Positions 3,400 through 35,886 of a DNA stretch of 64,000 nucleotides are shown piece after piece. The notes beneath the pieces are model-generated. The model had not been told where the DNA came from. It worked only from the letters and a program-made list of their open reading frames with translations, and made no database searches. The stretch comes from a bacterium (GTDB lineage: Bacteria; SAR324; JACQKK01): positions 1,376,001 through 1,440,000 of the forward strand of contig OZ251219.1 in NCBI GenBank assembly GCA_965240465.1, in the 5' to 3' direction. Position 1 is the stretch's first letter. Every line of letters begins with the position of its first letter. The position numbers and the translations under genes are program-made.

Positions 3400-3528
3400 G
3401 CGAAATAGTTTGTTCTGCAAGGGGTATGATGTTGTTGTCATCGGGGGGGGGGAGCAAGTACTCCCAAATCGGTGCTACAACCGCTGGCAGAAGGTATGGG
3501 ACGACCTACGCTGGAACACCTTAAATAA
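3400..3528 (+). pseudogene. Heavily decayed relic of the 3' end of the sugar-binding gene
   Basis: tgatgttgttgtcatcgggg...caagtact resembles 3149-3180; ctggcagaaggta...cttaaataa resembles 3347-3389. Confidence 0.7.
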
Positions 3529-12481: not shown

Positions 12482-13807
12482 ATGGCACATCATGAGGAAC
12501 ACTGCCTGAAGAGATTTTTTGTGAAAACAACAACCAAGATTTTTATTATCTGCGTTTTGTCAGTCACGATGCTATCTGGCTGCCAAGTACAGGAGAAATA
12601 CCAGAAATTACTAAAAAAGATTACTGAGATTTTGAACATCGGTAAGGAAGAGAGTGCTGTTTCTGAAGAGAGTGCTGTTTCTGAAGAGAGTGCTGTTTCT
12701 GAAGAGAGTGCTGTCCCTGAAAGAGAGTCTGTAAAAGAATCATTTATTAGTACTAGTATTGCGGTGGGTAATTTTCACACTTGCACAGTGGTGAGAGGTT
12801 CTGCTTGGTGCTGGGGGTTAGGGAATAGTGGTCGTTTGGGTACTGGCAGTAGTAAAGAGCAAAAAAAGCCTGTCCTAGTGGAAGGCTTAGGCAATGGTGT
12901 TTCTGATATTTCAGCGGGGGCGGAACACACCTGTGCTATCAAAAGAGGTTCTGCTTGGTGTTGGGGCAAGGGATCTGAAGGACAGCTAGGAAATAGTGGT
13001 ACTAGGTCTCGGTTTAAGCCTGTAGAGGTAGTGGGGTTATCCAGTGGTGTTTCCTCTATTTCTGCAGGGTATTCACATAGTTGTGCCATCAAAGGAAACG
13101 CTGCTTGGTGCTGGGGCTTAAGCAAGGATGGTCGTCTGGGAAATGGTGTTTCTGGTGCTGTTGTGAGAAACCAGCCTGTGCGAGTATCAGGTCTTAGTAT
13201 GGGAGTTTCTCGTATTTCGGCGGGGAAGGCTCATACCTGTGCGATTGTGGCAGGGGAGGCTAGGTGTTGGGGGTTTGGAGGCAGTAATCAGCTAGGAAAT
13301 GGTAGTACTAGCGACCAATCTAGGCCTGTTAGGGTGTCTACTCTTGGTTCTGGCGTTACCGATATTTCAGCGGGTGCAGAGCATACATGTGCTATCAAGA
13401 GTGGTGGTGCTTGGTGCTGGGGAGAAGGACAACAAGGTCAGCTAGGCAATGGCGATGTAGTCAATCAGGGTATGCCTGTGCAAGTGAGAGAGCACGACAG
13501 TGGTTTTTCGAGTATTTCTACGGGTTCAGCTCATAGTTGTGCGGTTGTGAACAGGTCTGCTTGGTGTTGGGGGAATGGTAGTAGTGGTAGGATTGGTTAT
13601 GGTGGTGTACATTTGAAAACTGCCCCAGTAGAGGTAATTGGTATTGTAGGGAGGGCATCTGTGATTGCCGCGGGGTATTCACACACTTGCGTGCTGGTAG
13701 GAGGTGGAGTGGTTTGGTGCTGGGGCTTTGGTGGTAATGGTCAGTTGGGAGACGGAAAAAGCGGTTTCCATGAGAGACTCAAGCCGATCAGGCTCCGTAT
13801 GAGGTAG
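12482..13807 (+). CDS. Shorter, divergent RCC1 repeat lipoprotein (about one propeller); real start possibly GTG at 12521
   Basis: Lipobox MLSGC; about 7 HTC/HSC...AWCWG...GxLG repeats. Confidence 0.88.
   Translation: MAHHEEHCLKRFFVKTTTKIFIICVLSVTMLSGCQVQEKYQKLLKKITEILNIGKEESAVSEESAVSEESAVSEESAVPERESVKESFISTSIAVGNFHTCTVVRGSAWCWGLGNSGRLGTGSSKEQKKPVLVEGLGNGVSDISAGAEHTCAIKRGSAWCWGKGSEGQLGNSGTRSRFKPVEVVGLSSGVSSISAGYSHSCAIKGNAAWCWGLSKDGRLGNGVSGAVVRNQPVRVSGLSMGVSRISAGKAHTCAIVAGEARCWGFGGSNQLGNGSTSDQSRPVRVSTLGSGVTDISAGAEHTCAIKSGGAWCWGEGQQGQLGNGDVVNQGMPVQVREHDSGFSSISTGSAHSCAVVNRSAWCWGNGSSGRIGYGGVHLKTAPVEVIGIVGRASVIAAGYSHTCVLVGGGVVWCWGFGGNGQLGDGKSGFHERLKPIRLRMR
12647..12720 (+). repeat. 18-bp tandem repeat x4 encoding EESAVS
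   Basis: gaagagagtgctgtttct repeated. Confidence 0.9.
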
Positions 13808-13810
13808 ATT

Positions 13811-13850
13811 GGGGGATGGGGGGGGGGGTTGGGAGGTGAAGGTGGGGAGG
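13811..13850 (+). other. G-rich tract with G-quadruplex potential
   Basis: G5-at-G11-tt-G3-aggtgaaggt-G4 in the convergent intergenic gap. Confidence 0.6.
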
Positions 13851-14201
13851 CTAATTTTTTGTTTCTGTAGCGATCCATTGCAGGAATTCTGGGTTGCCGT
13901 GTGTTATGGGCCAAGCGATAATACAAGGGCATTGATAAGAGTGGAGGGTTTTCACTCTGGTAGTGAGTTCTTCGAGGCGGGTGGTTGTTGTTTTAGCCAG
14001 CAGGGATATTTCTTTAGCTGAGTTAAGCTGTCCTTGCCAGCGGTAGATAGATTTGTGCTCGCCCAAGATATTGGCACAGGCAGCCAGTTTTTCCGATACT
14101 AAAATGCTTGCGATGTTTTGGGCTTCTTTTTGGGAAGCAGTGGTAATATACACCAGTAGTGGTTGAGGAGATTTTGGTATCACGACTAGTTTTATTTCCA
14201 C
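13851..14201 (-). CDS. cutA: Divalent cation tolerance protein CutA
   Basis: LVSEKLAACANI, SIYRWQG, LHSYQCPCI. Confidence 0.92.
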   Translation of the reverse strand: MEIKLVVIPKSPQPLLVYITTASQKEAQNIASILVSEKLAACANILGEHKSIYRWQGQLNSAKEISLLAKTTTTRLEELTTRVKTLHSYQCPCIIAWPITHGNPEFLQWIATETKN

Positions 14202-15733
14202 CAGAGGGGGTATTTTTTTTCGTCAGTGTCTGGGAGTTGTTGGGGATATTTGTCAAGGTATCCTGCTTGGGCTGCTTGCAGAAAGGAATCCACCCAATGG
14301 AAGACATTATGATTAGCTACGGTTTTTTTCAGCTGGTTCATGTTGTGGATACGCTCTTCTTTTTGCATGGTGCATGCGTGGTAGATGGTGTCTGCCATTC
14401 CTTCGGTGTCAAAAGGATTAACAGTTAGGGCGTATTTACCCAGCTGGGCAGCTGCCCCTGCAAACTTGCTGAGTACCAGTACACTATTTTCCGTTTTAGC
14501 ACAGGCACAAAATTCTTTAGCCACCAAATTCATACCGTCATCCAGAGGAGTGATCAAAGCTATATCGGCGGCATGATAGTATCCCAGCAGTTCTTCGTGT
14601 TTTAGAGAACGATACTGGTAGATAATGGGAGTCCAATTTGGGCGAGAAAACTCACCATTGATTTTTCCCACCAATTGCTCTATTTCCTGCTTAATTTTTT
14701 CATATTCTGGAATTTGCTCGCGACTGGGTACCAGCACCTGTACTAGAGTTACCTTGCCTATCAAGTTTTGGTATTTTTTCAGCATATCGCTAAAGCCACG
14801 TAGTTTGTGCCTAATTCCTTTGGTATAGTCCATGCGGTCTATGCCGAGTACGATTTTCGTATCCTTTAGGCTGTTACACAGGGTTTGGCTGTATCCTTGT
14901 GATTTACTTGAGTTAACTGTGGTAGCGAAGTGTTGGTAGTCTATACCGATAGGAAAGCTGCCTACCTTAGTGACGCCATGTTTATGTTCAATATGATGTA
15001 GCGATCCGTGGCGTGAAATGTGGATTTTTTTCAGTAGAGATTCCACCGCACGCATGAAGTGTGTTTTATGCCATGGGGTTTGGAAGCCCAGCAGATTGTA
15101 TGACAGCATGGAAATTAGGATTTCTCTAGCCCAGGGCATCATGACAAATATTCGGTCTGGAGGAAAAGGAATATGGAGAAAGAAGCAGCTAGGGTTTTCC
15201 ACCCCCAGTTCCCTCAAGCGTTGTCCTAGCTGGATGAGGTGGTAGTCGTTTGTCCAGAGAAGGTCTTTTTTTTGTACTGTACTTTTAACTACGTGGGCGA
15301 ATTTCTTGTTAACCTCTTGATAGCTTCTCCAGTAGGTAGGATTGAAGTCACAACGGTGCGGCATGCAGTGAAACAAAGGCCAAATAATACCGTTGGAAAA
15401 ACCTTGATAAAAAAGCTGAAATTCCTCTTCTGTAAGAAACACAGGATTTACCAGATAGCCGATATTTTTGGTATGCCTTTTTAACAGAGACCACTTGGCA
15501 GGATGTCCGAGCACTCCGGGCCAACCGATCCACACTCCCCCACGATGACGCAACACTGGCCCCATAGCGGTGACTAGCCCTCCAGAACTAGAAGATATCT
15601 TTGAGATCCCTTCTTTATCCGATAACGTGAACGGCAAACGGTTGGAAATAATTACCAGACGCTCAATTTCTTCCGTAGAAGAATCTTCCAGAGTGGCAGG
15701 GACTAGCCACTCTTCCGACATTCTACTTCCCAT
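14192..15733 (-). CDS. otsA: Trehalose-6-phosphate synthase (GT20)
   Basis: [44 protein letters not shown]. Confidence 0.93.
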
Positions 15734-27402: not shown

Positions 27403-30400
27403 ATGCCCTTAAAAGATGTTCCTGCCTGCTATGACGGGTCTCGGCTGGAAGAAGAAATACTGCAATTTTGGCAGCAGCAGGATGTTTTTGCCAAGTGCTT
27501 AGAACAGACTGAGGGGCGGCCGCTGTTTTCATTTAATGAGGGTCCTCCTACCGCCAATGGCAAGCCGGGCTTGCATCATGTGCTGGCACGTGCCTTTAAG
27601 GACATTTACCTCCGCTACCGAACTATGCGTGGGTTTTATTGTCCTCGCAAGGCGGGCTGGGATTGCCACGGGTTGCCAGTGGAACACGAAGTAGAAAAAG
27701 AACTGGGCATTTTCAACAAGCAGGAAATTGAATCTCGGGTGGGGATAGAGGAATTTAATCGCCGTTGTCGGCAATCGGTCATGCGTTATGTGAAACCTTG
27801 GGCAGAAATGACCCAACGCATGGGCTTTTGGGTAGATCTGGAGAACGCTTATTTCACCCTCGACAATGACTATATTGAATCGGTCTGGCAGCTGCTTAAA
27901 ATAATCTGGGATAAGGGCTTTATTAAAAAAGACTATAAGGTTGTTCCATATGACCCGCAAGCGGGGGTCACCTTGTCATCGCATGAGGTGGCTTTGGGCT
28001 ACAAAGAGGTGGAAGATCCTTCGGTGTTCGTACGCTTTCGTCTACAGGATAAGGAAAATACCAGCCTGCTAGCTTGGACAACCACTCCCTGGACACTGCC
28101 AGCTAATTTTGCTCTGGCTGTAAATCCTGAGGCTGAGTATCTAGAAGTGGAAGTAGACCTGACTGAGCCCACTGATAAAAAATGCGAGCGATTAATAGTC
28201 GCCCAGCAGTGCTTGGAAGCAGTATTTTCAGGGGTGGAAGTAAAGATTATCAGGCGTATGCAGGGGCATGAACTGGCAGGGATGCGTTATCAGAGGCTGT
28301 TTGATGAGTGGCCTGCCGAGGGATATGTTTGTCGCATTGTGGCAGAGAAGTTTGTGGGTACAGATGAAGGTACAGGGATTGTCCATTTGGCTCCCTATGG
28401 TGCAGAAGATATGGAAGTTGCCCGCAAGCATGGTTTCACGGCAGCCCATGTGGTTGGCATGGATGGGAAATTTTTACCGCATGTATCATTTGTAGCTGGC
28501 AAATTCTTTAAGGATGCCGATAAAAGCATCATCAAGGCGTTAAAAGACAAGGGGTTGCTGTTTAGAATGCAGATTATCACGCATAGCTATCCTCATGGTT
28601 GGCGTACAGGCGTGCCGCTTATGTACTATCCTAAGGAAGCTTGGTTTATTCGCACCTCACAGATACGCGCGCGTATGGTGGAGCTTAACCAGAGTATTAA
28701 CTGGATACCCGATCACATTAAGGACGGTCGCTTTGGGAATTGGCTCTCTAACAATGTGGATTGGGCTCTTTCCCGAGAAAGATTTTGGGGTACTCCTTTG
28801 CCTATCTGGACTGATGGCGAGGAATTCATATGTGTTGGGTCTGTAGCAGAGCTAGAAAAGCTCTGCGGTAAAAATCTGATGGAGCTTGATTTACATCGTC
28901 CTGCGGTAGACAAAATAACCTTCCCTCATCCTAAAACAGGTCGTACAATGAGCAGAGTGCCAGAAGTGATTGATTGCTGGTTTGACTCAGGAGCTATGCC
29001 ATACGCCCAGTGGCACTACCCATTTGAAAACAAAGAGCGTTTTCAAAAGCAATTTCCTGCTGATTTCATATGTGAGGCCATCGACCAAACTAGGGGCTGG
29101 TTTTATAGCCTCCATGCGGTAGCTACCTTGATATCTGACCAAGCTTCTTTTCAGAATGTGATCTGTTTGAGTCACATAGTGGATGAAAATGGGTGCAAGA
29201 TGTCCAAATCGCTGGGAAATGTGATTGCCCCCTTTGAGGTTTTCAATAAGGTTGGTGCAGATCCTCTCAGATGGCATTTCCTTGCCAGAGTCCCTCCAGA
29301 AGGTCAAAAACGAGTTTCATTAGACTTAATTCGGGGAGTTTCCAGCGGATTTATCAACACTTATTGGAATATTTATGCTTTTTTCATTAACTATGCCAAG
29401 CTAGATAAAATCAATTTTAATCAGCCTCTTGACCCCAAATTACTCACCGAAATAGACCGCTGGATACTGGCATTGCTGGGAAAAACCATTCTCACAGTTT
29501 CTACTGCCCTAGACAACTTTGATGCCCGTACCGCAGGAGATTCTCTAGAACGCTTTGTCAACCAACTCAGCAATTGGTACATACGCCGCAACCGATACCG
29601 ATTTTGGAAAAGTGAGCCTGGTCAAGACAAGCAAATGGCTTATTTAACACTAGGGCATTGTCTGTATGACATCAATCGTATGCTGGCACCTTTTATGCCC
29701 TTTATCACAGAGGAGGTACATAAAAATCTAGCCAGCACCATAAACTCCAGTGCCCCCGTAAGCGTTCACCTAGATAGCTGGCCTAAGCCTGATGATTCCT
29801 TTATTGATCAGCCATTGGTTGAGCAAATGAACGTAGCCCAAAAAGTGGTTTCATTAGGTCGGGCTGCCAGAGAAAAATCTGCCATCCGAGTTAGGCAGCC
29901 ATTGTCTCTCATCAGTATCTATCTTCCCGATGAAATCGCAAAAGAAGCCGTCCTAGCCCAAAAAAAGCATATCTTGGAAGAACTAAACATCAAAAAACTA
30001 GAGTTTCTACCGCCCCAAGCCTGTATTGCCCAGTACCAAGTTAAGCCGAACCTTCCTCGCCTAGGTAAAAAACTAGGTCCGCGTATCCCCGTCCTAAAAA
30101 AAACCCTAGCTGCTTTGCCCGAAAAATCAATCGCCCAACTCCAACAAGGACAATCCATCACCATTACGCTCAATAATCAATCCCTCAACCTATCACCAGA
30201 AGATGTACTTATTGAAACCACCTCTGCCAATGCTGGTCAACAATCGGCTGCCAGTGAAGGCAAAATCCTGGTCATCATCAATACCAGTCTAAACGAAAAA
30301 TTGCTACAAGAAGGACTCGCCCGAGAACTCATCCGCTCCGTACAAGAAGCTCGTAAACAAGCTCAACTTAAACTCTCCGACCGCATCAACCTTCACATTA

Positions 30401-30564
30401 GCGGTAGCGAAATAGTCCAAAAAACCATCGCCTCCAACCAAAAATTCATCATGAGTGAAACCCTCGCTACCCACTGGGCTACCCAAAAATTAGCCTCCTT
30501 TACCTGTCAGCATAAGGTGAACCCTCATCACTGGACTATATCCCTAGAAAAAAGCACCAACTAG
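27403..30564 (+). CDS. ileS: Isoleucyl-tRNA synthetase, type 2
   Basis: GPPTANGKPGLHH, GWDCHGLPVE, WTTTPWTLP, KMSKS; type 2 C-terminus EGLARELIRSVQEARK with no C-terminal Zn finger. Confidence 0.95.
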   Translation: MPLKDVPACYDGSRLEEEILQFWQQQDVFAKCLEQTEGRPLFSFNEGPPTANGKPGLHHVLARAFKDIYLRYRTMRGFYCPRKAGWDCHGLPVEHEVEKELGIFNKQEIESRVGIEEFNRRCRQSVMRYVKPWAEMTQRMGFWVDLENAYFTLDNDYIESVWQLLKIIWDKGFIKKDYKVVPYDPQAGVTLSSHEVALGYKEVEDPSVFVRFRLQDKENTSLLAWTTTPWTLPANFALAVNPEAEYLEVEVDLTEPTDKKCERLIVAQQCLEAVFSGVEVKIIRRMQGHELAGMRYQRLFDEWPAEGYVCRIVAEKFVGTDEGTGIVHLAPYGAEDMEVARKHGFTAAHVVGMDGKFLPHVSFVAGKFFKDADKSIIKALKDKGLLFRMQIITHSYPHGWRTGVPLMYYPKEAWFIRTSQIRARMVELNQSINWIPDHIKDGRFGNWLSNNVDWALSRERFWGTPLPIWTDGEEFICVGSVAELEKLCGKNLMELDLHRPAVDKITFPHPKTGRTMSRVPEVIDCWFDSGAMPYAQWHYPFENKERFQKQFPADFICEAIDQTRGWFYSLHAVATLISDQASFQNVICLSHIVDENGCKMSKSLGNVIAPFEVFNKVGADPLRWHFLARVPPEGQKRVSLDLIRGVSSGFINTYWNIYAFFINYAKLDKINFNQPLDPKLLTEIDRWILALLGKTILTVSTALDNFDARTAGDSLERFVNQLSNWYIRRNRYRFWKSEPGQDKQMAYLTLGHCLYDINRMLAPFMPFITEEVHKNLASTINSSAPVSVHLDSWPKPDDSFIDQPLVEQMNVAQKVVSLGRAAREKSAIRVRQPLSLISIYLPDEIAKEAVLAQKKHILEELNIKKLEFLPPQACIAQYQVKPNLPRLGKKLGPRIPVLKKTLAALPEKSIAQLQQGQSITITLNNQSLNLSPEDVLIETTSANAGQQSAASEGKILVIINTSLNEKLLQEGLARELIRSVQEARKQAQLKLSDRINLHISGSEIVQKTIASNQKFIMSETLATHWATQKLASFTCQHKVNPHHWTISLEKSTN

Positions 30565-31170: not shown

Positions 31171-34100
31171 ATGGAAACATCTCAAGATAGCAAGAGCGCA
31201 TCAAATTTCATATCAGATTTAATCCGTTACTATATGGATTTTCTCGAAACTAACTTCCATAAAAGGAGAGTCCCTAAAAGAAGTGTTAAATATCGTGATG
31301 GCAAGAATCTTCTCATAGGGCAAAATCTTAATAAATATCCAAGGTTCTCCGAAAAACTTTGGAAATATATCAATCGATCATTTGATGAGAATACATCACT
31401 TTCTGTTAAGAGAGGTCAATACAAGACCACAATTCCAAAGTCACGTATAGATCTTATACACAAGCAGAGTGATTCCATTACGCCTGAACACGTAGACCAG
31501 ATTCAGAATGGAATCATAGATGTGATGAATAAAGTATCAATAGAGCATCGAGATGAAGCGGATAAAGCTTTTAATATCGCATTGGATGAGACCGCAGAAA
31601 TACTCGGAGAGGTAATCATCCGCCCCTTTCTCGAGAAGATAGAAAAGCTGATAGCTAAGCAAAGCAATACAGAAATCGATTCGACATATTCTTTGGAAGA
31701 AGTTGTTGATGTCCTTGTAACACCTATGAGAGATATTATTTCAGAATCCATCAATTTATTGATAACTAATCAAGAATTCGACCCAAAAAAGGAACTGTCA
31801 ACTGAATGTGAAGTGAGGTTACTGAAAGATCGATTAATTCATTATTTTGACGATCTCTCAAAGGATGATCTCTACTCTGAGATTAGGGATCTTGTAGATA
31901 ATAAACACATCTTAGACAAGCAGGAGCTATACCTTTACTTCTGTGATATTAAATTCAATCAAAATCGTTATCCAATATTTTATATTCCCATCTCAATAGA
32001 AAAACAGGCCGATACTTTCTCGCTTAATTTTGATTCTTCGGTCTTCATCAATAAAAAAGCGATAGAATACATTGTACAGGAATATAATAATAAGAAAGGA
32101 AAGAAAGGTACACTCGCTTCGATTCGGGAGAGGATCTTAAATATTGAAGAGTTGAGAGGCAACTTGCCTGATTTATTCCAAAAGATACTCAACGAAATTA
32201 CAGATTATTTTGAGTTGGCTTCTAATATCGATTTATCTGGTGCTGAAAAACAGATTTCCAAAAGTTTTTTGATCCATGCTTCCAATGCGATTCACATTTG
32301 CATCTTCGATAAATCCGATGAATCCCTCGTGAATGATTATGAGGAAATGCTTACATTACTTGATTCTGAGGATAGTTCTCTCGCAGCTATATTTAATAAA
32401 ATAATTACGAATTTTATTAAGGAACGACTCCAACGATGTAAGAATGACATCGATAAAGAGTGGGACGTTCTTCCTGTTAGTGACAAGCTGGTAGCTAGTA
32501 GCCCTATCCCACTCAACAGCGAACAACGGCAAATACTAAATGCTTTAAATAAAGACAGCTGTAATTATATAGCTGTAGAAGGACCTCCTGGAACAGGAAA
32601 GAGCCATACAATCACTGCACTTGTATTCGATTATATTCTCAAGAATAAGTCCGTGCTAGTACTTTCTGATAAAAAAGAAGCTCTCGATGTTGTCGAAGAT
32701 AAAATCACACATACACTCAACAGTGTTCGTCTACACAAGCAATTTCAGAACCCAATTCTAAGATTGGGTAAATCAGGAAACACATATAATCAAATACTCT
32801 CAACCACTTCCATCAATAATATTCGTAACCATCATAAAGCGTTCAAAAAACATTATGATGAACTAATTCCTAATATCAAATCCAATAGATCCTATCTCAT
32901 TAGACAAATCGAAGAGACGATTGAAATTTATAAGTCGATTAATCCTGACGACTTACTCGAATATACTCAACTGGAGAAGGAACAGGATAACGATAATCGA
33001 TGGCCTATTGATGCTGGGGAGATTGCCTCTCGTGCTGATGGGCTTCAGGATTTGATGCAACTAAGCGAGAACTGCCTTAGCCTTAGTGAGTTATTTGATA
33101 ACGAGAGTGTAAGTGAATTCCTAACACTTCTCAGAAAATACAAAATAGATCCTGAAACGAGAGAGCCCATAATAATATTTCTTAAGCTCATCAAGTCGAT
33201 GAGAGAAATAATACAAAGTAAGGAGCAGGAGATCGCAGTTCTGCCCCTGTTTAGAGCGATGAATCAAAATGTCTATTCTGGACTGCAGGACTTCATCAAG
33301 AAAGCGGACGAAATAAAATCTAGCTTCTGGTGGTCTCTCTTCAAAAGGGGCCAGGTAAAGCAAGTTACGTCATCATTTTATGACCAGTTTCATACTACTG
33401 GCATTGAGAGCCCTTTATTATCACTGGATAAAATAAAAGAGTTTTGCAGAGTTACTGAAAACATTGTTGCTTCTATGGAAGGCAATATAGATTTTGAGGC
33501 CATAGGACTAGACAAATACGAAGCGAGTCATCAGTTGCTCAGCGACGATCATGCAGCCATCAATACAGTTGAAATTGAGAAAATAGAGGCATTCATTTCA
33601 TTCATTGACAAATATGTTCAAGAATACCCGAAGACGTCGAAGCTGCTCACTATAACAAGTGCTGACATATCTACCTATCATAATAATCCTCTTACAACTA
33701 TTGACAGCAAAGAATTCGATATTCTGAAAAGATTCATTAAATGGAAGAATTTCTTCAACCGCTCTTTTAACAGCCTTCCTGACTTTAACTATGTAGAAGC
33801 TAAATCAGCCCTGGAAAAATTATATACTTCGCAAATGACACATATTCTGGATGGGAGAGTCTTAAAATTTGAGGAAGAGAATCGGTCCACAGCGAGGACA
33901 CTGAAGGGGAATATCAGGAAAAAGAAAAGATTTCCGCGAGAGGAATTCAGCAAACTAAAAGAGGCATTCCCCTGCATAATAGCTGGCATCAGAGATTTTG
34001 CGGATTATATTCCACTTGAGGATAACCTCTTTGATCTTGTTATTATTGATGAGGCCTCTCAGGTTAGTATAGCTCAAGCTTTTCCTGCACTATTACGCGC

Positions 34101-35451
34101 AAAGAAGGCTGTCATCCTGGGTGACAAAAAACAGTTTAGCAACGTAAAATCAATGCAGGCACGCTCCGACACAAACGCGAAATATCTGAATCTGCTTAAT
34201 AAAAGCTTTAAAGCCAATGTCTCTGTTAATATTTCTGAATTGGAGAGACTAACAAATTTTAATATAAAAACCTCAGTCCTCGAATTTTTTGGGTTCATAA
34301 GCAATTTCGACATCATGCTATTAAAGCATTTTCGAGGGTATCGTGAACACATTTCATATTCTAGCAAGCATTTCTACGGTGGCCAGTTACAAGCAATACG
34401 ACTACGAATACACCCTATAAATGAAGTCATCAAGTTTACAAACATTGATCATGACGGATTGAAGGAAGTAACAGAAAATACAAACTCTCCTGAAACAGAA
34501 TTTATTATTACTGAACTTAATAAGCTCAAGGAGAACGATACTCAATCATCCGTAGGCATTATAACCCCCCATACCAACCAGCAGAAGTTGATATCTGCTG
34601 AAATCTCTAAATTGCCAGATCGTGACTATTTCTATGATGAATTAAATCTCAAGATTATGACATTTGATACCTGCCAGGGAGAGGAAAGAGATATTATCTT
34701 TTACTCAATGGTAGCTACGGGGGACTCCGATAGATTGTGGGGTGTGTTCATAAAGGATCTCAGCACCATCGACCTCGAAGAAAACGGTACGATAAAAACG
34801 CAACGATTAAACGTCGGTTTTAGCAGAGCAAAGGAATGTATGCACTTCGTTATCAGCAAGCCTATAGAAGAATTTACTGGTTCCATAGGTGATGCACTGA
34901 GGCATTACAATGCTATTTTAGAAAAAACCAAGACTCTACCCACCGAATCGGATGTTGATCCAAAATCTCCTATGGAGACAAGGGTTTTAGAGTGGTTAAA
35001 AAACTGCCCATTTTATCAAGAACACTTTGAGGCAATCGAGATCAAAGCGCAGTTTCCTATCGGAGTATATCTGAAGCAACTTGACCAGGATTATGAGCAT
35101 CCGTCATATGAGCATCCGTCATATGTAATAGATTTTATGTTTTTGTTTCGTGATCCTACCGATAGTAAGGATTACAAGATTATAATCGAGTACGATGGAC
35201 TAAGGAATCATTTAGATAATTATGAGAATATCAATGAATTTAACTATGAGCACTTTTATACCAAAGAGCACGTTGAAAGACAAATGGTGTTAGAGAGCTA
35301 CGGATATCAGTTTATTCGTTTAAATCGATTCAACACGGGTAGTGACCCAATAAAATCTTTGAATGACAAAATACTGAACATTGTAAAAAAAAAGACTTTA
35401 AAACCGAGACCACATTTACAGAGAAACTCCTTGATACCGTCAGCGATCTAA
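31171..35451 (+). CDS. Large SF1 (DNA2/NAM7/Upf1-like) helicase with C-terminal Vsr/DUF559-like nuclease domain
   Basis: GPPGTGKS, IIDEASQ, GDKKQ, HFR, TCQGEERD, RLNVGFSRAK; SPME...YVIDF...IIIEYDG...ERQMVLESYGYQFIRL. Confidence 0.85.
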   Translation: METSQDSKSASNFISDLIRYYMDFLETNFHKRRVPKRSVKYRDGKNLLIGQNLNKYPRFSEKLWKYINRSFDENTSLSVKRGQYKTTIPKSRIDLIHKQSDSITPEHVDQIQNGIIDVMNKVSIEHRDEADKAFNIALDETAEILGEVIIRPFLEKIEKLIAKQSNTEIDSTYSLEEVVDVLVTPMRDIISESINLLITNQEFDPKKELSTECEVRLLKDRLIHYFDDLSKDDLYSEIRDLVDNKHILDKQELYLYFCDIKFNQNRYPIFYIPISIEKQADTFSLNFDSSVFINKKAIEYIVQEYNNKKGKKGTLASIRERILNIEELRGNLPDLFQKILNEITDYFELASNIDLSGAEKQISKSFLIHASNAIHICIFDKSDESLVNDYEEMLTLLDSEDSSLAAIFNKIITNFIKERLQRCKNDIDKEWDVLPVSDKLVASSPIPLNSEQRQILNALNKDSCNYIAVEGPPGTGKSHTITALVFDYILKNKSVLVLSDKKEALDVVEDKITHTLNSVRLHKQFQNPILRLGKSGNTYNQILSTTSINNIRNHHKAFKKHYDELIPNIKSNRSYLIRQIEETIEIYKSINPDDLLEYTQLEKEQDNDNRWPIDAGEIASRADGLQDLMQLSENCLSLSELFDNESVSEFLTLLRKYKIDPETREPIIIFLKLIKSMREIIQSKEQEIAVLPLFRAMNQNVYSGLQDFIKKADEIKSSFWWSLFKRGQVKQVTSSFYDQFHTTGIESPLLSLDKIKEFCRVTENIVASMEGNIDFEAIGLDKYEASHQLLSDDHAAINTVEIEKIEAFISFIDKYVQEYPKTSKLLTITSADISTYHNNPLTTIDSKEFDILKRFIKWKNFFNRSFNSLPDFNYVEAKSALEKLYTSQMTHILDGRVLKFEEENRSTARTLKGNIRKKKRFPREEFSKLKEAFPCIIAGIRDFADYIPLEDNLFDLVIIDEASQVSIAQAFPALLRAKKAVILGDKKQFSNVKSMQARSDTNAKYLNLLNKSFKANVSVNISELERLTNFNIKTSVLEFFGFISNFDIMLLKHFRGYREHISYSSKHFYGGQLQAIRLRIHPINEVIKFTNIDHDGLKEVTENTNSPETEFIITELNKLKENDTQSSVGIITPHTNQQKLISAEISKLPDRDYFYDELNLKIMTFDTCQGEERDIIFYSMVATGDSDRLWGVFIKDLSTIDLEENGTIKTQRLNVGFSRAKECMHFVISKPIEEFTGSIGDALRHYNAILEKTKTLPTESDVDPKSPMETRVLEWLKNCPFYQEHFEAIEIKAQFPIGVYLKQLDQDYEHPSYEHPSYVIDFMFLFRDPTDSKDYKIIIEYDGLRNHLDNYENINEFNYEHFYTKEHVERQMVLESYGYQFIRLNRFNTGSDPIKSLNDKILNIVKKKTLKPRPHLQRNSLIPSAI
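35385..35394 (+). other. Slippery site A9G (A_AAA_AAG in the helicase frame)
   Basis: Codons gta aaa aaa aag at 35383-35394. Confidence 0.7.
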
Positions 35452-35747
35452 ATTCTGGAAAACTCAAGACTTGTCCAAAGTGCAATCAACTTAGACTAAT
35501 TTCTGATTTTAAAGATGCAACGTTAATTTCAGGAGAAGGTCGTTTTTGTAAATCCTGTAAGCGAGGAATTGCGAAACCTAATCGAGGAAAGACAAATAAG
35601 GCGGAAAGAAGTGCTAGTGACTCTTTTCAATGCCCAAAATGCTCAGCAAGAATGGTATTGTGTTCAGGAAAATATGGTAAGTTTTATGGATGTTCAACGT
35701 ATCCACGTTGTCGTGGTACTAGACACTACTTTCATAGCTTCCACTAG
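35394..35747 (+). CDS. -1 frame extension of the helicase: CxxC..CxxC module plus topoisomerase-type C4 zinc ribbon (117 aa)
   Basis: DFKTETTFTEKLL...CPKC...CKSC...CPKCSARMVLCSGKYGKFYGCSTYPRCRGTRHYFHSFH*; frame opens after TGA at 35364 and has no start codon before the motifs. Confidence 0.8.
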   Translation, partial: DFKTETTFTEKLLDTVSDLNSGKLKTCPKCNQLRLISDFKDATLISGEGRFCKSCKRGIAKPNRGKTNKAERSASDSFQCPKCSARMVLCSGKYGKFYGCSTYPRCRGTRHYFHSFH

Positions 35748-35827
35748 ACTTTTAAATTTTGCAGCTTCTTCATGAGTCATCTTAATTGCGCAATGAGGGC
35801 CGAGCCAGTATTTCTGCCATTGCCAAA

Positions 35828-35886
35828 CCGAGCTAGTCTTGCCGAGCTAGTCATTGCCGAGCTGGTCATTGCCGAGCTCGTTGTTG
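35828..35886. repeat. Four tandem 14-15-bp repeats ccgagct(a/g/c)gt...ttg
   Basis: ccgagctagtcttg ccgagctagtcattg ccgagctggtcattg ccgagctcgttgttg. Confidence 0.8.

Follow-up and report, generated by a model that had tools for sequence, protein, structure and literature searches.

Bacterial RNA polymerase is reported to slip efficiently on runs of nine A or T, a length at which selection against such runs becomes visible (PMC1088944), and slippage at A/T runs has been described as a means of expression in Thermus dnaX, in Shigella mxiE and in insertion sequence (IS) elements (PMC1088944; PMC5009743). The closest described case is tssM1 of Citrobacter rodentium, in which transcriptional frameshifting at 11 A was proven experimentally and both forms of the protein, as well as their ratio, were reported to be needed (PMC4256274). 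Here we describe a gene for a large helicase-nuclease located at positions 31,171 to 35,747 of a 64,000-nucleotide (nt) stretch of bacterial DNA, hereafter the window (GTDB lineage SAR324, JACQKK01; assembly GCA_965240465.1, contig OZ251219.1, positions 1,376,001 to 1,440,000). Its reading frame is broken at a run of nine A (A9), ahead of a tail with two zinc ribbons. An earlier note on this DNA had named it a candidate recoded defence protein. Our comparisons suggest that the run is a maintained poly(A) slippage site from which a 1426-aa (amino acid) and a ~1525-aa isoform would be made, a reading that we consider probable, though by some way short of certain.

The likeness to tssM1 is close. 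In both genes a poly(A) run interrupts the frame just before a C-terminal domain; in tssM1, according to the published account, extra A's in the mRNA yield the full-length form beside the truncated one, as is proposed for the window gene. The tssM1 break is reported to be kept in a second species, as tssM3 of Yersinia pseudotuberculosis, and the break of the window gene is kept in its relatives. The two cases differ in that tssM1 has 11 A and experimental proof, whereas the window gene has 9 A and belongs to another protein family.

Conserved poly(A) frameshifts rescued by transcriptional slippage have also been reported in Buchnera and Blochmannia (PMC3017870). As in the present family, a homopolymer frameshift in those genes is described as kept between species with the downstream frame undecayed. 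The endosymbiont frameshifts are presented, however, as a side effect of extreme AT bias that touches housekeeping genes across the genome, whereas the window gene is the sole case found in a genome of 45% GC, lies at a domain boundary, appears to have been acquired horizontally and has a short product that looks complete. The two dnaX products, tau and gamma, arise by −1 frameshifting at A_AAA_AAG in E. coli and by slippage at A9 in Thermus, as described in PMC1088944 and PMC5009743. The window gene has the same heptamer and run, and in both genes two products differ, or would differ, by a C-terminal module. In dnaX, by contrast, the shift yields the shorter product, and E. coli dnaX uses a Shine-Dalgarno (SD) sequence and a hairpin as stimulators, neither of which was found here. 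Poly(A) slippage as a mechanism is thus already known; what would be new is its occurrence in a large, uncharacterised helicase-nuclease family.

The open frame breaks at a run of nine A ahead of a zinc-ribbon tail

The main open reading frame (ORF; 31171..35451; all features of the gene are on the + strand) encodes 1426 aa, the putative short isoform, consisting of an N-terminal domain, a superfamily 1 (SF1) helicase, a Vsr-like nuclease and 18 out-of-frame residues; its C-terminus reads ...NIVKKK, followed by those 18 residues, ending NIVKKKTLKPRPHLQRNSLIPSAI. The nine A at 35385..35393 are the last A of the preceding Val codon and the A's of three Lys codons (GTA AAA AAA AAG), so phased that they form the proposed slip site A_AAA_AAG; sequence, contigs and homologues all point to this run. 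A frame scan showed that the −1 frame opens at 35367 and closes with the stop codon at 35745-35747. It overlaps the 0 frame, with both open, for 85 nt (35367..35451), and since this is the sole doubly open stretch, any change of frame must fall there.

Behind the run, the −1 frame encodes a tail of 117 codons plus stop (35394..35747) that consists of a linker and two zinc ribbons. The translation reads ...KKKDFKTETT...CPKC...CKSC...CPKC..MV..GKYGKFYGCSTYPRC; directly after KKK stands DFKTETTFTEKLLDTVSDLNSGKLKTCPKC, then ...CKSC...CPKC...GKYGKFYGCSTYPRC. Zinc ribbon 1 (CPKC...CKSC; 35472..35558) has Cys residues that are kept in all the frameshifted and in-frame tails compared. Zinc ribbon 2 (35628..35723; tail residues 79-110) is of the topoisomerase-I C4 type, and Zn_ribbon_Top1 (PF01396) matched the 117-aa tail with an E-value of 7.6e-11 and 42.1 bits, as compared to a Pfam gathering cut-off of 32. 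Across the 117-codon span there are 0 stops in the tail frame versus 3 and 14 in the other two frames. No ATG, GTG or TTG was found in the tail frame of the window between its opening and the first Cys. Joining the tail after K1408 gives 1408 + 117 = 1525 aa, which is the usual size of the homologues, and the −1 tail aligns without gaps to the homologues' in-frame tails from KKK onward. What the earlier note had said of the sequence itself, namely the ORF, the A9 run as A_AAA_AAG, a −1 tail with CPKC/CKSC and a C4 finger, and the lack of a start codon, was borne out throughout, the early 0-frame stop lying 18 codons after KKK.

The frame break is present in independently assembled DNA

Logan contigs from two sequencing runs cover the break, spanning 34800-35589 and 34800-35848 at depths of 104 and 72.6, with 0 differences and 0 gaps relative to the window; both runs come from one sample of one study, possibly the source sample, and contigs mask rare length variants. 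Two further runs, X3 and X4, gave no contig that matched here, and the sequencing runs listed for the stretch included no RNA run. In the genome as a whole (1.6 Mb, 45.4% GC), 71 sense-strand runs of at least 8 A stand unbroken inside long ORFs, and a crude scan found three frameshift-like signatures at A runs, including this gene. The other two candidates were rejected: the one at window 14192-14220 is an overlap of otsA- and cutA-like genes, and the one at genome position 593996 is a complete diadenylate-cyclase-like ORF followed by junk. Because 71 runs are unbroken and the other two sites are false, the assembly is not full of homopolymer errors. The present gene is, by this crude scan, the only true poly(A) frameshift case in the genome, and, within what contigs can reveal, the frame break is a true feature of the DNA.

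The contig graphs fork at two places downstream, window 35560-35591 and 35819-35878, and these forks may reflect strain variation. In run X1 the contig ends at 35589, within the tail ORF, and short side contigs are present. The fork at 35819-35878 falls within a short tandem repeat (GCCGAGCT.GTCATT units) that separates the tail from an ABC-ATPase gene, and there the contigs carry 1-2 differences.

Homologous genes break at the same place where the A run is long

Homologues found at E<=1e-3 fell into >1600 protein clusters, and the best 120 proteins matching residues 1000-1426 were mostly 1500-1570 aa long with PF01396. Nine loci, including the window, break the frame at a run of 9 or 10 A (homologous loci are designated by L and a number), eight of them with the tail in −1 and one with the tail in +1. 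The run is A9 followed by G in the window, L173, L174 and L180, A9 followed by C in L088, and A10 in L087, L103 and L116. The locus broken in the opposite direction, L177 (5625-5634), has A10; the last stop of its tail frame is the TAA in G-TAA at the start of the run, and the tail frame is open from within the run onward. The longest run of A at the site has 2-6 letters in 107 of the 120 in-frame loci, 7 in nine, 8 in one and 9 in three. Therefore, the frame breaks only where the run is long. The earlier note had held that homologues uniformly in frame and lacking a conserved A run would make this a private frameshift mutation; what was found is nine loci broken at A9-A10.

Some of these loci came from directed searches. 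Part of the genome loci was found with queries from the short clade, and L173, L174, L177 and L180 were obtained by searching 301 genomes in the order of L116, six of which had the gene. Further copies were sought in the orders of genomes G042 (86 genomes) and G043 (five genomes), where the gene was found in one genome each, the respective genome itself.

In the broken loci, the two frames overlap by 22-85 nt (22 nt in L103), and the overlap always contains the run. The linker between the run and the first ribbon is open and conserved in these loci, and four of the eight broken loci examined (the window, L103, L173 and L180; L116 was not among the eight) have no start codon before the first Cys. 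These two features suggest that in the broken lineages the tail is translated and joined to the upstream protein. The break may also be visible in public protein sets: 40 of 223 motif-bearing proteins end at most 60 residues from the start of the motif, and 23 of these 40 short proteins, including that of the window, have their C-terminus 0-19 residues behind KK[K/N] and are possibly wrongly annotated.

Several carriers of the broken gene are Rickettsiales with small genomes. L116 (8732-9431; the same genome as L176 and L179) lies on a complete chromosome of a Rickettsia endosymbiont, which has a second, N-terminal fragment of the gene elsewhere (L139). L143 (5366-5960), from a Gracilibacteria metagenome-assembled genome (MAG), is in frame only when TGA is translated as Gly and has an unbroken A10 at the site.

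The tail is conserved in the shifted frame

A FastTree phylogeny of 90 rows was built from the last 490 residues before the run. The rows comprised every broken locus, every locus with a run of 7 A or more, all genome loci and one in three of the other metagenome loci; 43 in-frame metagenome loci were omitted, as were the short L147, L150 and L151 and a duplicate of L116, L176. A clade with 99% support unites L174, L180, L087, L088, L086, L116 and L173, six of which are broken in −1. The sole in-frame member, L086 (A9 followed by G), is nested among the broken ones. Parsimony within this seven-member clade gives one ancestral break and one reversion, and the whole tree requires at least five changes of state. 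Differences at the run within the clade are confined to its tenth position, where A, C or G has been substituted; they are not changes of length.

Two pairs of broken loci, each sharing the break by descent with nearly the same junction, were compared for selection on the tail, which proved to be constrained much like the nuclease domain upstream. In the pair L087-L088 the tail has a dN/dS of 0.105 at a dS of 2.4, with 0.097 for the upstream nuclease; in L174-L180 the values are 0.115 at a dS of 0.80 for the tail and 0.050 for the nuclease. In the tails of both pairs pN was lower than pS (Fisher p<=1e-13). All the tails compared keep at least 8 Cys, and in a substitution-only neutral simulation at the distances of the pairs, both tails stayed free of stops in no more than ~1e-3 of the trials. 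The two internal Lys codons of the run are AAA in 5/5 full-length members of the clade, as compared to 18 all-AAA columns among 67 invariant-Lys columns, a test that is weak and biased by the choice of site. Taken together, the comparisons indicate that the break dates far back in at least some lineages of the family and that the tail is under purifying selection in the shifted frame. The two isoforms from one gene that the earlier note had proposed thus gain support from comparison, in that relatives keep the break at A9-A10 with tails under purifying selection.

A proposed slippage mechanism for two isoforms

In the mechanism that we propose, standard decoding would give the 1426-aa protein without the tail, and in a minority of expression RNA-polymerase slippage on A9 would add one A to the mRNA; alternatively, the ribosome would slip by −1 on A_AAA_AAG. 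Either slip would lead to ...V-K-K-K-D-F-K... and to a product of ~1525 aa, whose architecture most homologues have within a single frame. The C-terminal module of two zinc ribbons, predicted to bind single-stranded DNA, would be reached only by slippage at A9. The window copy presumably acts like its relatives, and we infer that both isoforms are useful. The further idea of the earlier note, that the two isoforms would tune a toxic helicase-nuclease, is speculative.

Slippage is most likely mainly transcriptional, because neither a stimulatory hairpin nor a conserved SD sequence was found and because L177 needs the opposite shift. The 60 nt 3' of the run folded no better than shuffled sequences in 12 loci (z −1.44 to +1.16), and there was no conserved SD sequence upstream of the run in the loci examined, in agreement with the earlier remark that no obvious SD or stimulatory hairpin was to be seen. 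Ribosomal −1 frameshifting, as the earlier note had suggested, is possible because the A_AAA_AAG heptamer lies in the phase of the 0 frame and because the genome, with 44 tRNA genes including tRNA-SeC, has a single tRNA-Lys, with anticodon UUU. A sole tRNA-Lys(UUU) is described as making A_AAA_AAG shift-prone (PMC5009743). Thus, the heptamer and tRNA repertoire are those of a classical −1 frameshift. Such frameshifting also requires the same direction of shift across homologous sites, however, whereas the present sites comprise eight in −1 and L177 in +1, a shift beyond the reach of −1 ribosomal frameshifting, which fits transcriptional slippage better.

We also put forward, as a tentative and on balance doubtful extension, that the break at the A run has been selected as a recoding switch and is not a lesion that is simply tolerated. 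The out-of-frame state would have been fixed in several lineages, many with small genomes or intracellular, and would set a low, constant ratio of a tailed form, anchored to single-stranded DNA, to a tail-less form, with both forms needed as in tssM1. If so, a conserved recoding site would for the first time have been described in a family of defence-like helicase-nucleases.

In genome annotation the gene would pass for a pseudogene, or for a truncated protein with non-coding DNA behind it, whereas the comparative data suggest that the tail is still used. If the slippage reading is correct, a helicase-nuclease family of >1600 protein clusters has members whose domain make-up is set in transcription or translation, and the known cases in IS elements, dnaX, type VI secretion and insect endosymbionts would be joined by one from elsewhere whose evolutionary signature can be measured. 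A 130-nt cassette, with its natural in-frame and out-of-frame variants, offers a test system for the slippage yield of A9 and for selection on the isoform ratio.

Alternative explanations of the break

Several observations weigh against a maintained slippage site. Most of the family needs no slippage. Among the metagenome matches listed, the tail is in the nuclease frame in 79 of 80 loci, the remaining one (L022) being naturally tail-less, and both viral-contig loci are in frame. There were 79 genome loci, 19 of them without the nuclease region; the other 60, classed by frame, included 53 in frame, three with the tail in −1 (L087, L088 and L103), one broken at A10 and further decayed (L116), and three without a tail hit, namely L112, with a decayed tail, L122, truncated after the first CPKC, and L143. 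The share of broken copies in these counts is not a population frequency, because queries came from the short clade. Some relatives (L022 and several proteins) lack the tail and others have it replaced, for example by WYL; the tail is therefore dispensable in some lineages. One broken copy, L116, is clearly dying, with stops inside the gene and a tail split by an insertion, and the decay of the L112 tail points the same way. The window copy forms a long branch (0.36) of its own, and since no orthologue of it turned up in the 40 relatives searched, the age of the break in its lineage is not measurable and could be recent. As for the pair with the more distant tails, L088 comes from a contig at 2.1x coverage, and L087 is possibly from a long-read assembly, judging by the style of its contig name.

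Some of these points speak for a plain inactivating frameshift, that is, a recent loss of one A at a mutational hot spot that left the tail as a young relic, the gene now making the tail-less protein only or being about to decay. The window lineage offers no close relative by which to date the event, broken or unselected tails do decay, as seen in L116 and L112, and the tail is dispensable in some members of a family that is mostly in frame. Nonetheless, three pairs or lineages of relatives keep the same break with a tail dN/dS of about 0.1, open tails would survive neutrally in a pair in at most about 1e-3 of cases, and the window tail itself retains 117 codons without a stop, all its Cys residues and a Pfam score above the cut-off. 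Furthermore, going by the account of such runs in PMC1088944, A9 would slip somewhat even after a loss of this kind. We consider an inactivating frameshift unlikely, though it deserves to be taken seriously.

Alternatively, replication slippage might toggle the DNA of a population between A9, with the tail off, and A10, with the tail on, as at contingency loci. The in-frame L086 among its broken kin and the oppositely broken L177 both show that run length changes in the course of evolution, and the 83 poly-G/C tracts of at least 9 nt in the genome hint at a habit of homopolymer switching. Against such phase variation, which seems to us quite improbable, a poly(A) of nine is a far weaker switch than the poly-G/C tracts of contingency loci, the frame state is alike in six of the seven clade members, whose runs differ by a tenth-position substitution and not by length, and the contigs of the two sequencing runs show only A9, although contigs mask rare variants. 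Gene fission, in which the tail would be a separate small protein with its own start codon, could draw on the conserved Met three residues before the first Cys in L087 and L088, with a GGAG-like string upstream, and on the ORFs of 93-99 aa that can be called in L087, L088, L174 and L177. The window, L103, L173 and L180 have no ATG, GTG or TTG before the first Cys, however, and the linker of about 22 codons ahead of the L087/L088 Met is kept open and conserved by all the broken loci, although a protein with its own start would have no need of it; we give this explanation very little credence. Equally slight is the chance of an assembly or sequencing error that hides a true run of 10 A and an ordinary in-frame fusion. 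Homopolymers are the classic site of such errors, and one extra A would restore the common architecture, but independent k-mer assembly of two sequencing runs gave 9 A without an indel at depths of 104 and 72.6, runs of at least 8 A are unbroken in long ORFs 71 times in the same assembly, and other species, assembled independently, show the same state.

Domains of the protein and relation to defence families

The first ~440 residues (31171..32490) form a conserved N-terminal domain without a recognised family or fold. A Pfam scan of residues 1-440 returned nothing below an E-value of 0.01, a Foldseek search of the AlphaFold2 (AF2) model (predicted local distance difference test, pLDDT, 79) against pdb returned no match at E<=0.001, with template modelling (TM) scores of at most 0.13, and the protein atlas contained no usable match. 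The domain is followed by an SF1 helicase core of the Upf1/Dna2-like type (residues 448-1227; 32512..34851), which matched Pfam AAA_11 (E 2e-18) and AAA_12 (E 1.7e-19) and has a long insert separating its two RecA-like halves.

The domain at 34960..35382, upstream of the run, resembles Vsr and DUF559-like PD-(D/E)xK nucleases, and its AF2 model (pLDDT 88.3) points to a restriction-endonuclease-like fold of the Vsr type. VIA-align matched the model to FASTKD4 RAP (Z 10.1), I-Bth0305I (Z 8.7), Vsr 1cw0 (Z 8.5; root-mean-square deviation 3.5 over 103 aligned residues) and 3hrl (Z 7.9, 24% identity). The sequence evidence for this fold is weak: Pfam MTES_1575 reached an E-value of 6.8e-4 and 20.1 bits, under its cut-off of 38.2, a PDB profile search of the domain gave nothing below an E-value of 0.28, and Foldseek gave weak PD-(D/E)xK rows only.

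The gene had been likened to anti-phage systems such as hhe, and the resemblance stands, whereas membership does not. The Hhe model NF042953 of NCBIfam scored 101.9 bits against a cut-off of 2000 and matched residues 929-1229 only, and the PADLOC Hhe model scored 67.8 bits, in the helicase core only; the DUF4011 N-terminal domain of Hhe was found by Pfam neither in the whole protein nor in residues 1-440. Partial matches confined to the helicase core were likewise obtained with ProA (139.2 bits against 1500), with Mokosh MkoA and MkoC (139.5 bits for MkoC) and with PDC-S37 (137.9 bits). Hhe, ProA and Mokosh (MkoA/MkoC) thus have an SF1 helicase core in common with the window protein, and Hhe likewise joins its helicase to a Vsr-like nuclease, but the N-terminal domain and zinc-ribbon tail of the window protein are not alike in these systems. 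As judged from the profile scores, the protein resembles the Hhe, ProA, Mokosh and PDC-S37 systems but belongs to none of them.

Origin and neighbourhood of the gene

The gene has a GC content of 35-39%, as compared to 44-47% in its flanks, and a search of 40 relatives, among them the second genome of the genus, yielded no orthologue, only three weak matches to the helicase core. Because of its low GC content and the lack of an orthologue in these relatives, the gene looks horizontally acquired. A scan of 67 neighbouring ORFs at 21 homologous loci showed no constant partner gene. The neighbours that recur there are resolvases, an integrase, a transposase, a reverse transcriptase and SIR2-like, AAA_13 and HEPN AbiU2 proteins, and such neighbourhoods would fit a mobile, defence-like single-gene system. 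The cellular role, as judged from the domains and the neighbouring genes, is probably DNA-targeting defence or repair.

At four of the 21 loci, the next downstream gene encodes either a PDDEXK_1 + RNase_H_2 protein or a DUF2779 protein (L014, 7573-9078; L069, 7601-8275; L102, 7607-9193, − strand; L088, 7723-9183), which may be an occasional partner of the helicase-nuclease.

Two further features of the genome were observed. IleS, encoded at window 27403-30564, is 68% identical to its nearest match and at most 59% identical to named relatives (SAR324 and Gammaproteobacteria MAGs), identities that indicate a poorly sampled lineage. The 83 poly-G/C tracts measure 9-18 nt, and many of them lie between ORFs or near ORF ends; their abundance is unusual and hints, by analogy, at phase-variable contingency loci. 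Two poly-G tracts are inside the window, G10 at 3443-3452 and G11 at 13818-13828. The latter lies directly 3' of a 441-aa ORF (window 12482-13807) with many ...WCWG.G..G.LG... repeats, which look RCC1-like.

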